Sequence record: PQ589898.1
Direction: 5' to 3' (one strand)
DNA: 42,729 nt
Origin: Escherichia phage Alux-21
Below are positions 31,284 to 32,708 of this stretch, piece by piece (the first letter of the stretch is position 1; every line of letters starts with the position of its first letter). The notes under the pieces are model-generated. The model was not told where the DNA came from. It did no database searches and worked only from the letters and a program-made list of their open reading frames with translations. Position numbers and translations under genes: made by a program.

Positions 31284-32708
31284 ATGGCAGGTACTGATTT
31301 TTTACATGGCGTGGAGGTACTGGAAATTGATTCCGGTTCGCGCGTCATTCAAACCGTTAAATCAAGCGTCATTGGCATCGTAGGCACCGCACCTAATGCC
31401 GACCCTGACGCATTCCCGATTAACACCCCTACCCTGATTGCTGGCAGCCAGCGCGAAGCGGCGAAACTGGACCTGCTTGGCACCGGTGAAGGCACCTTAC
31501 CTAAAGCACTTGATGCAATCCTGGACCAGATCGGCGCGGTGGTCATCGTTGTGCGCGTTGAAGAAGGCGAAGACGAAGCAGAGACACTGGCCAACATCAT
31601 GGGCGGCGTTAACGCATCAACCGGAAAATATGAAGGCGTTCATGCGCTGCTTGGCGCTGAATCTGTTGTTGGCTACTCGCCACGCATTCTTTGCGTTCCT
31701 GGCTTCACGCATACCCGCGTTCAGGATGGAGTCACAGCTATTACCATCGGCAACGGCGGCAGCGGCTACACCACAGCGCCAACGGTTACACTTTCTGGTG
31801 GTGGCGGTTCTGGCGCAACAGCGGAAGCTACCGTGTCTGGTGGCGTCATCACTAAAATCACCGTCACCAACAATGGTATGGGTTACACCACAGCACCAAC
31901 CGTAGCCATCACTGGCGGAAACGGCACCGGAGCAACTGCAACCGCATCCGTTGGCATCGCGGCAAACGCCGTGGTTTCTGAACTGCTTGGCATCGCCAAC
32001 CGACTGCGTGCCGTCATCATTGCCGATGGTCCAAACACCAACGACGCTGACGCTATCGCCTACCGCAAAGACTTTGGCAGCAAGCGCGTTTATGTGGTTG
32101 ACCCAAAAGTGCTGGTGCTTGACGAAGATGGAACCACGATTACTGACTGGGCATCTCCGCGCGTAGCTGGCCTGATTGCCCGCATCGACAACGAGCGCGG
32201 TTTTTGGTGGTCACCATCAAACCAGGAAATCTATGGCATCCAGGGCACAGCCCGAACCATTGATTTCACACTTGGTGACACGTCCAGCCGTGCAAACCTG
32301 CTGAACGAAAACGAAGTCACCACCATCATTCGCCAGGACGGTTTCCGCCTGTGGGGCAACCGCACCACTTCCGCAGATCCTAAATGGGCGTTTCTGTGCG
32401 TTGTTCGCACGGCTGACATCATCAATGACAGTCTGCTGCGCGCGCACCTGTGGGCCGTAGACCGTGGCATCACCAAACAATACGTCAATGACGTGATTGA
32501 AGGCGTGAACGCGTACCTGCGTAACCTGGTTAGCCTGGGCGCAATTCTTGGCGGCACGTGTTGGGCTGACCCTGACTTAAATACTGCTGACCAGATCGCT
32601 GACGGTAAGGTATACTTTGATTTTGATTTCACGGCTGTTTATCCGGCTGAACACATCATTTTCCGCAGCCAGTTGACTAATGATTATATTAGCGAGGTAT
32701 TCGAATAA
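31284..32708 (+). CDS. contractile tail sheath protein (P2 gpFI-like) with internal tandem repeat
   Basis: 474 aa; sheath family landmarks at both ends; internal duplicated about 37-aa unit containing GYTTAPTV (31729-31955). Confidence 0.9.

Follow-up and report, generated by a model that had tools for sequence, protein, structure and literature searches.

A pair of widespread 39-residue repeats as a probable surface accessory domain in the tail sheath of Escherichia phage Alux-21

The pyocin sheath combines a handshake domain, which forms a mesh around the tube, with a globular protrusion domain, to which other systems attach further domains (PMC8195476). The diffocin sheath has a domain II (residues 26-225) that interrupts domain I and is exposed on the surface, free of contacts with the tube or with other subunits (PMC6088184). 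Evseev et al. (2022) built models of the sheaths of phages ep3 (475 amino acids, aa) and Arya (477 aa), which they classed as two-domain, and they classed those of MAR, P2 and the pyocin as one-domain (PMC9230969). Here, we analyzed the tail sheath of Escherichia phage Alux-21 (PQ589898.1), an ep3/ECO1230-10-like E. coli myophage whose complete genome of ~42.7 kb (42,729 nucleotides, nt) is hereafter called the window. The ep3 sheath is nearly identical to that of the window, and given the two-domain listing of ep3 and Arya the extra domain in this sheath is already on record. Our results make it quite probable that this domain is a pair of repeat units, of a kind that recurs promiscuously in virion proteins, inserted in the outer sheath domain as a surface accessory.

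The inserted segment and its two repeat units

At the DNA level, the sheath gene of the window is 91-93% identical to those of ECO1230-10, ep3, HeidiAbel_Bas97 and ECOO78. Its product scores above the Pfam cut-offs for Phage_sheath_1 (PF04984; 85.7 bits, cut-off 31.4) and Phage_sheath_1C (PF17482; 83.2 bits, cut-off 26.9), with the Pfam stretches on the C-terminal part of the protein (residues 226-362 and 364-465). It is also matched by PHROG 23, "tail sheath" (E = 1.3e-129, residues 4-473), and by the R2 pyocin sheath PA0622 (386 aa; E = 9.9e-92). The Pfam scores, the homology to a solved structure and the gene order all place it in the contractile sheath class of the P2 FI/PA0622 type. The parts of the gene are as follows, with the evidence in brackets.

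31284..32708, + strand: tail sheath gene, 474 aa, P2 FI/R2 pyocin type (open reading frame, Pfam, PHROG 23, PA0622)
31284..31709, + strand: sheath residues 1-142, N-terminal arm and first half of the outer (protrusion) domain (aligns with PA0622 2-134; conserved in all homologues)
31710..31961, + strand: inserted segment, residues 143-226 (84 residues), with the repeat module proper at residues 150-226, 31731-31961 (gap in PA0622, P2 FI, MAR and ZRG1)
31731..31844, + strand: repeat unit 1, V150-G187, laid out as strand, GSGYTTAP loop, strand, GGGGSG loop, strand, with G-x-G-Y-x-x-x-P at residue 159 (BLASTP, AlphaFold2, codon alignment)
31764..31787, + strand: DNA motif copy 1, GGCTACACCACAGCGCCAACGGTT, encoding GYTTAPTV (pattern search)
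31845..31961, + strand: repeat unit 2, V188-A226, laid out as unit 1, with the motif GMGYTTAP at residue 198 (BLASTP, AlphaFold2, codon alignment)
31881..31904, + strand: DNA motif copy 2, GGTTACACCACAGCACCAACCGTA, encoding GYTTAPTV (pattern search)
31962..32708, + strand: sheath residues 227-474, second half of the outer domain and C-terminal handshake domain (aligns with PA0622 136-383; Pfam)

Residues 2-134 and 136-383 of PA0622 align to residues 5-142 and 227-473 of the window sheath, respectively, and residues 143-226 of the latter have no counterpart. In an alignment of six sheath sequences, the same segment is a gap in P2-type FI (42% identical), Vibrio phage MAR (59%) and Pseudomonas phage ZRG1 (66%), and is present in Xanthomonas phage FoX2 (64%). 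Because the ZRG1 sheath retains both flanks (THQRESG / LANPVV vs. THTRVQDG […] AANAVV in the window sheath), the module proper was delimited as residues 150-226. Among 511 phage records matched by tblastn, most are P2-like sheaths that align as two pieces, with ~80-85% coverage over ~1150 nt, and are therefore without the segment, which is common to all of the 120 closest homologues. An earlier note on this DNA had proposed such an insertion in the sheath, and the alignment with related sheaths bears it out, placing the segment outside the conserved core. The segment accounts for the ~85 extra residues of this sheath relative to the P2 and pyocin sheaths. It is missing from the one-domain relatives and folds separately (see below), as befits a two-domain sheath, and its mean pairwise identity of 70%, vs. 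79-85% for the core, is as expected of a peripheral domain. The ZRG1 sheath (OQ504961.1, 47460-48977) carries a different insertion of ~115 residues (residues ~42-156) after the conserved GTAPN motif, which corresponds to approximately residue 41 of the window sheath. Given that ZRG1 is without the repeat module and has its insertion elsewhere, related sheaths are decorated independently, at different loops.

The two adjacent units that the earlier note had recognized in the sheath are identical at 21 of 32 residues (66%; BLASTP, E = 2e-12). The unit length of 37 aa given there needs correction, as the period is 39 aa (117 nt), with G-x-G-Y-x-x-x-P-x-V starting at residues 159 and 198; the span of 31729-31955 assigned to the duplication agrees to within ~10 nt with the module as delimited here (31731-31961). 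The repeat had also been described as visible in the DNA. Both strings quoted in support were found, 117 nt apart, but the DNA similarity is restricted to the motif core, a 24-nt patch in which 20 bases are identical between the copies. Apart from these two copies, a degenerate pattern spanning both found nothing in the window, and 100 shuffles yielded 0 matches. Tandem Repeats Finder did not detect the sheath repeat, and a DNA repeat scan did not report the 117-nt-spaced repeat, which was confirmed by the pattern search.

Distribution, fold and age of the repeat

With the 86-residue segment alone as query, matches at E ≤ 1e-3 were obtained to 12,348 representatives of clusters at 50% identity, including 529 at E ≤ 1e-30. 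Many of these repeat carriers are long, at 1,000-7,000 aa, and contain 10-37 matched stretches, and in the best 150 carriers the spacing between motifs peaks sharply at 38-39 residues, the spacing in the window being 39. Against a profile built on 51 modules of other proteins, the sheath module gives E = 1.3e-31, with 40-65% identity to them, and the sheath is the sole match of this profile in the six-frame translation of the window. Matches to the sheath by the PHROG families for virion structural protein, baseplate wedge, tail fibre, baseplate hub and head closure Hc2 are confined to residues ~142-236, and these non-sheath families match giant proteins via the same 39-aa repeat. A Foldseek search of predicted viral structures (BFVD) gave 35 matches at E ≤ 1e-3, with template modelling (TM) scores of 0.8-0.9 and root-mean-square deviations (rmsd) of 0.4-2 Å; the carriers include cyanophage structural, neck (gp14) and short-tail-fibre proteins, endosialidase, beta-helix tailspike and P22 gp10-like proteins.

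The insert alone had no Pfam match even at E ≤ 10 and no NCBIfam match. Pfam likewise assigned no domain to any of the eight repeat-carrying proteins scanned, and NCBIfam none to the three of these that were submitted to it. A literature search for the repeat motif strings returned no paper. The search of PDB sequences with the insert gave chance-level matches only (thioredoxin reductase at E = 0.1 and OAA-family lectins at E ~2), and no solved structure of the repeat was found there by sequence. The OAA-family lectin repeats (2mwh, 3s5v, 4gk9), which are carbohydrate-binding repeat barrels, align with the protein encoded at 31710-31967 over "V-x-A-I-x-I-x-x-G-x-x-G-x-T…G-G-x-G"; we do not take this match as evidence. 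A marginal profile match (E = 0.059) lies at residues 446-506 of the Dpo31/Dpo36 tailspike (PDB 8ck1/28lx/28mg), where V-x-I-T-I-x-D-x-G-x-G-Y occurs twice. Judged by its sequence, this stretch may be a diverged repeat copy in a solved depolymerase; the tailspike is missing from both fold-search lists.

A homologue search with the module profile returned mostly short fragments, and it also showed the module in Pseudomonas prophage tail tube proteins (PF16460). These proteins are short and carry the name "phage tail tube protein" (Pseudomonas protegens, P. oryziphila and others); in them, two repeat units are followed by the C-terminal tube part, and thus the module decorates tube proteins too; their length of 122-139 aa suggests miscalled starts or fragments. 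In long arrays, unit identity is 0.47 at each lag from 1 to 4. Given this flat profile, the evolutionary unit is the single 39-aa repeat. The repeat pair had been considered as a universal structural unit and was dropped, because the long arrays have no two-unit super-period.

AlphaFold2 (AF2), supplied with an alignment of 51 modules from unrelated proteins, modelled residues 146-226 as six strands, three per unit, with a predicted local distance difference test (pLDDT) score of 95.7 and a predicted TM score of 0.83. The suggestion that the duplicated piece is a small domain is thus supported by the model, in which the segment is predicted to fold alone as a small beta domain. A full-length AF2 model built with 28 close homologues had a mean pLDDT of 57, the insert region being its sole confident part. 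Foldseek searches of the PDB with the module gave nothing below E = 3.8.

When the two units were codon-aligned over 96 nt, 61 positions were the same; third positions agreed at 12 of 32 sites and the same codon was used at seven of the 21 identical residues. Among 100 two-unit homologues, the identity of unit 1 to unit 2 is 0.61 both within a protein and between proteins, and orthologous units are closer (0.70 for unit 1 vs. unit 1 and 0.74 for unit 2 vs. unit 2). The synonymous saturation and the equal identity within and between proteins show that the duplication is older than the sheath clade, that the units have not been homogenised and that their similarity is held by selection at the protein level. 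As the repeat is also widespread, it predates its entry into the sheath. From these sequence comparisons, the sheath lineage (ep3-like, Jilinvirus) most likely gained the repeat already as a pair. A neighbour-joining tree of six sheath sequences (380 ungapped core columns, no bootstrap) had the topology ((((window, 558-aa relative), FoX2), ZRG1), MAR) with P2 as outgroup; its simplest reading, which is a weak inference, would be a single gain of the module after ZRG1 and MAR had split off.

Copy number at the sheath site varies. A regular expression counted two motifs in ~100 of the 120 closest homologues, of 468-479 aa, and three or four in 16 others, of 557-562 aa; all six of the longer sheaths that were inspected have four units at the same site. 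A 558-aa sheath on Logan contig SRR26282668 (42,952 bp; 4001-5677) likewise has four motifs, and the gene order on this contig (fibre, collar, sheath, 168-aa tube, chaperone, tape measure, gpU, gpX, gpD) is that of the window. In the four-unit sheaths (557-562 aa), the second unit is without the GGGG loop (…AFASAAVLATATA…). A real duplication, from two to four units, happened later, in a sister lineage. Only even numbers of units are seen at the sheath site. The fold model offers a possible reason: a three-strand unit would leave the chain at the opposite end of the domain, so that an insertion in a loop would need an even count to return. Sheaths that naturally have 0, 2 or 4 units at a single site are a simple system in which to test what decorations do.

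The segment might be regarded as conserved sheath core present in all homologues, since PHROG 23 spans it and all of the 120 closest homologues have it; the gaps in PA0622, P2-type FI, MAR and ZRG1 and the two-piece alignments of most of the 511 tblastn records refute this explanation, which is almost certainly wrong. Its composition, strongly biased to G, T, A, S and V, would also suit a low-complexity, Gly/Thr/Ala-rich flexible linker without a defined fold. This is highly improbable in view of the six regular strands modelled at high pLDDT, the position-specific conservation over 51 distant copies and the close superposition (rmsd as above) of the BFVD models of other carriers.

The units being adjacent and 66% identical and sharing a 24-nt patch of near-identity, they could further be read as a recent tandem duplication, within the gene, of a 37-39-aa piece of the sheath that is still visible in the DNA. 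An origin by duplication within the sheath gene was implied by the earlier note, and it does not stand: synonymous sites are saturated, orthologous units are closer to each other than are the two units of one protein, and the repeat occurs in 12,348 other cluster representatives. The low agreement at third positions and in codons, the negative result of Tandem Repeats Finder, the equality of unit 1 vs. unit 2 identity within and between proteins, and the fact that nothing in the rest of the sheath resembles the repeat all speak against a recent event, which we consider very unlikely.

Position in the tail and neighbouring genes

Insertion of an ancient, promiscuous repeat pair is the reading that we prefer. 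The insertion point corresponds to residue 135 of PA0622, in the outer domain, the counterpart of the pyocin protrusion domain and of diffocin domain II, and by homology the module should thus be exposed on the surface of every subunit. In the proposed arrangement, two repeats of ~39 residues, each of three strands joined by G-x-G-Y-x-x-x-P and G-G-G-x-G-A loops, would form a self-contained beta domain, placed within a loop of the outer ("protrusion") domain in a sheath that is otherwise of the minimal P2/pyocin type. On each subunit the domain would then face outward, remote from the tube and from the contraction-driving handshake mesh, and would serve as an accessory surface domain. Conservation among the 51 modules falls mainly on Gly, Pro, Ala and Val, with one Tyr per unit, and the conserved positions look structural. 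By analogy, the likeliest roles of the module would be weak adhesion to cell-surface polysaccharide, a contact or docking surface for fibres or neighbouring subunits, or stability. Adhesion to polysaccharide is suggested because it was proposed for Ig-like decorations and for the additional domains of sheaths (PMC9230969), and contact with fibres or subunits is suggested by analogy with domain I of T4 gp18 (see below). A part in contraction is unlikely. The segment could probably be removed or replaced without harm to contraction, and it could serve for display or engineering on an ep3-like tail.

Several points weigh against a repeat pair acquired as a surface accessory. The long arrays have no two-unit periodicity, and the equation of two repeats with one domain may be limited to the sheath context. 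Surface exposure is deduced from homology to other sheaths rather than from a direct view, and the full-length model is poor outside the insert, its core being unreliable and unusable for placing the insert. No binding-site signature that would support a particular function is evident among the conserved positions of the 51 modules. Finally, acquisition as a pair would rest on the six-sequence tree without bootstrap, to which the alternative is that a single unit was acquired and duplicated long ago.

The genes around the sheath form a P2-type tail module, in the order sheath, tube, tail assembly chaperone, tape measure, gpU and gpD (Pfam on the downstream open reading frames, ORFs), and collar-domain fibre genes lie upstream of the sheath. 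The gene that follows the sheath is listed below.

32708..33214, + strand: tail tube gene, 168 aa (Pfam Phage_tube, E = 5.3e-57)

An ORF of 205 aa (33694-34311, + strand) lies between the chaperone gene (33275-33559) and the tape measure gene (34301-36658), the start of which it overlaps by 11 nt. It is without a Pfam match, matches PHROG 1035 "endonuclease VII" (E = 2.5e-17) and contains an H-x-D-H…N pattern like that of HNH nucleases; at its position, the Logan contig SRR26282668 has merely ~120 nt. The ORF may represent an insertion of the homing-endonuclease type into the tail module, at the site that the frameshift extension of the chaperone occupies in P2-like phages. Another ORF, of 741 aa (26030-28255, + strand), is directly upstream of the collar-domain fibre genes and has neither a Pfam nor a PHROG match. 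Judged by its position, it may encode a fibre, spike or depolymerase; a depolymerase, Dpo42, has been reported from the related phage ECOO78 (PMC5539073).

Comparison with known systems

Domain I of T4 gp18 (residues 98-188) is a six-stranded barrel with a helix; it protrudes from the tail without inter-subunit contacts, touches the baseplate and binds the retracted long fibres, and the gp18 mutations G106S, S175F and A178V block fibre retraction (PMC3004832). It is conceivable, although we think it rather doubtful, that the module is a true homologue of this domain and shares its docking of retracted fibres and its contact with the baseplate. The best stretch of the module profile on full-length gp18 (residues 102-169) falls within domain I in the same register, G106 lies under the first Gly of G-x-G-Y, and domain I is likewise six-stranded, inserted and outward-protruding (PMC3004832). 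In contrast, hhalign against 12 diverse T4-like domain I sequences aligned 23 columns at E = 0.018 with a probability of 2.5%, and against T4 gp18 alone it gave E = 0.13, so that neither comparison yielded significant sequence or profile similarity. Domain I further contains an additional helix, and it is embedded in domain II instead of directly in the conserved domain (PMC3004832); such nesting in a domain II sandwich was not found in the window sheath, where the flanks of the segment align directly to PA0622. The window phage has P2-type fibres, and domain I of gp18 (PDB 3fo8, 3foa), unlike the module, has no obvious two-fold sequence repeat. With so weak a sequence signal, domain I is best described as the closest solved fold and a plausible distant relative that is undemonstrated as a homologue. 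It is a tentative suggestion that the 39-aa G-x-G-Y-x-x-x-P/G-G-G-x-G-A repeat constitutes a very large, unnamed family of the virion surface, without a solved member identified by sequence, of which gp18 domain I would be a diverged member. If so, the T4 mutations in domain I that block fibre retraction would suggest that such domains generally serve on the phage particle to dock fibres or glycans.

Ig-like decorations of virions, for which weak binding to surface carbohydrates was proposed (Fraser et al., 2006, as cited in PMC9230969, ref. 72), resemble the module in that they are small beta domains, scattered horizontally among tail, fibre, neck and baseplate proteins and dispensable for the core machinery. 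The module differs from them in fold and sequence family, in its lack of a Pfam model, in its glycine-rich 39-aa repeat and in its runs of >30 copies; neither an Ig-like (Big/FN3/I-set) sandwich nor a Pfam Ig-like match was found for it. No description of the sheath domain as two copies of a widespread 39-aa repeat, or of the 0/2/4 series, was found in Pfam, NCBIfam, PDB sequences or the searchable literature. The finding matters little for this phage itself. The repeat is abundant in phage structural proteins yet has no model in Pfam or NCBIfam, and with a curated one, thousands of giant virion proteins now labelled "hypothetical" would be annotated in part.

The sheath core of the window is homologous along its whole length to the minimal sheaths PA0622 (E-value as above) and P2 FI, with the same gene order, and differs from them by the 84-residue segment, which they are without. 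In having a compact beta domain in a loop of the conserved sheath, away from the part that contacts the tube, the window sheath is like the "type 2" two-domain sheaths (PMC9230969) and the "Russian doll" insertion architecture (PMC6088184). As the same repeat is very common on the exterior of virions, the domain is best seen as an ordinary surface decoration that involves no new mechanism.
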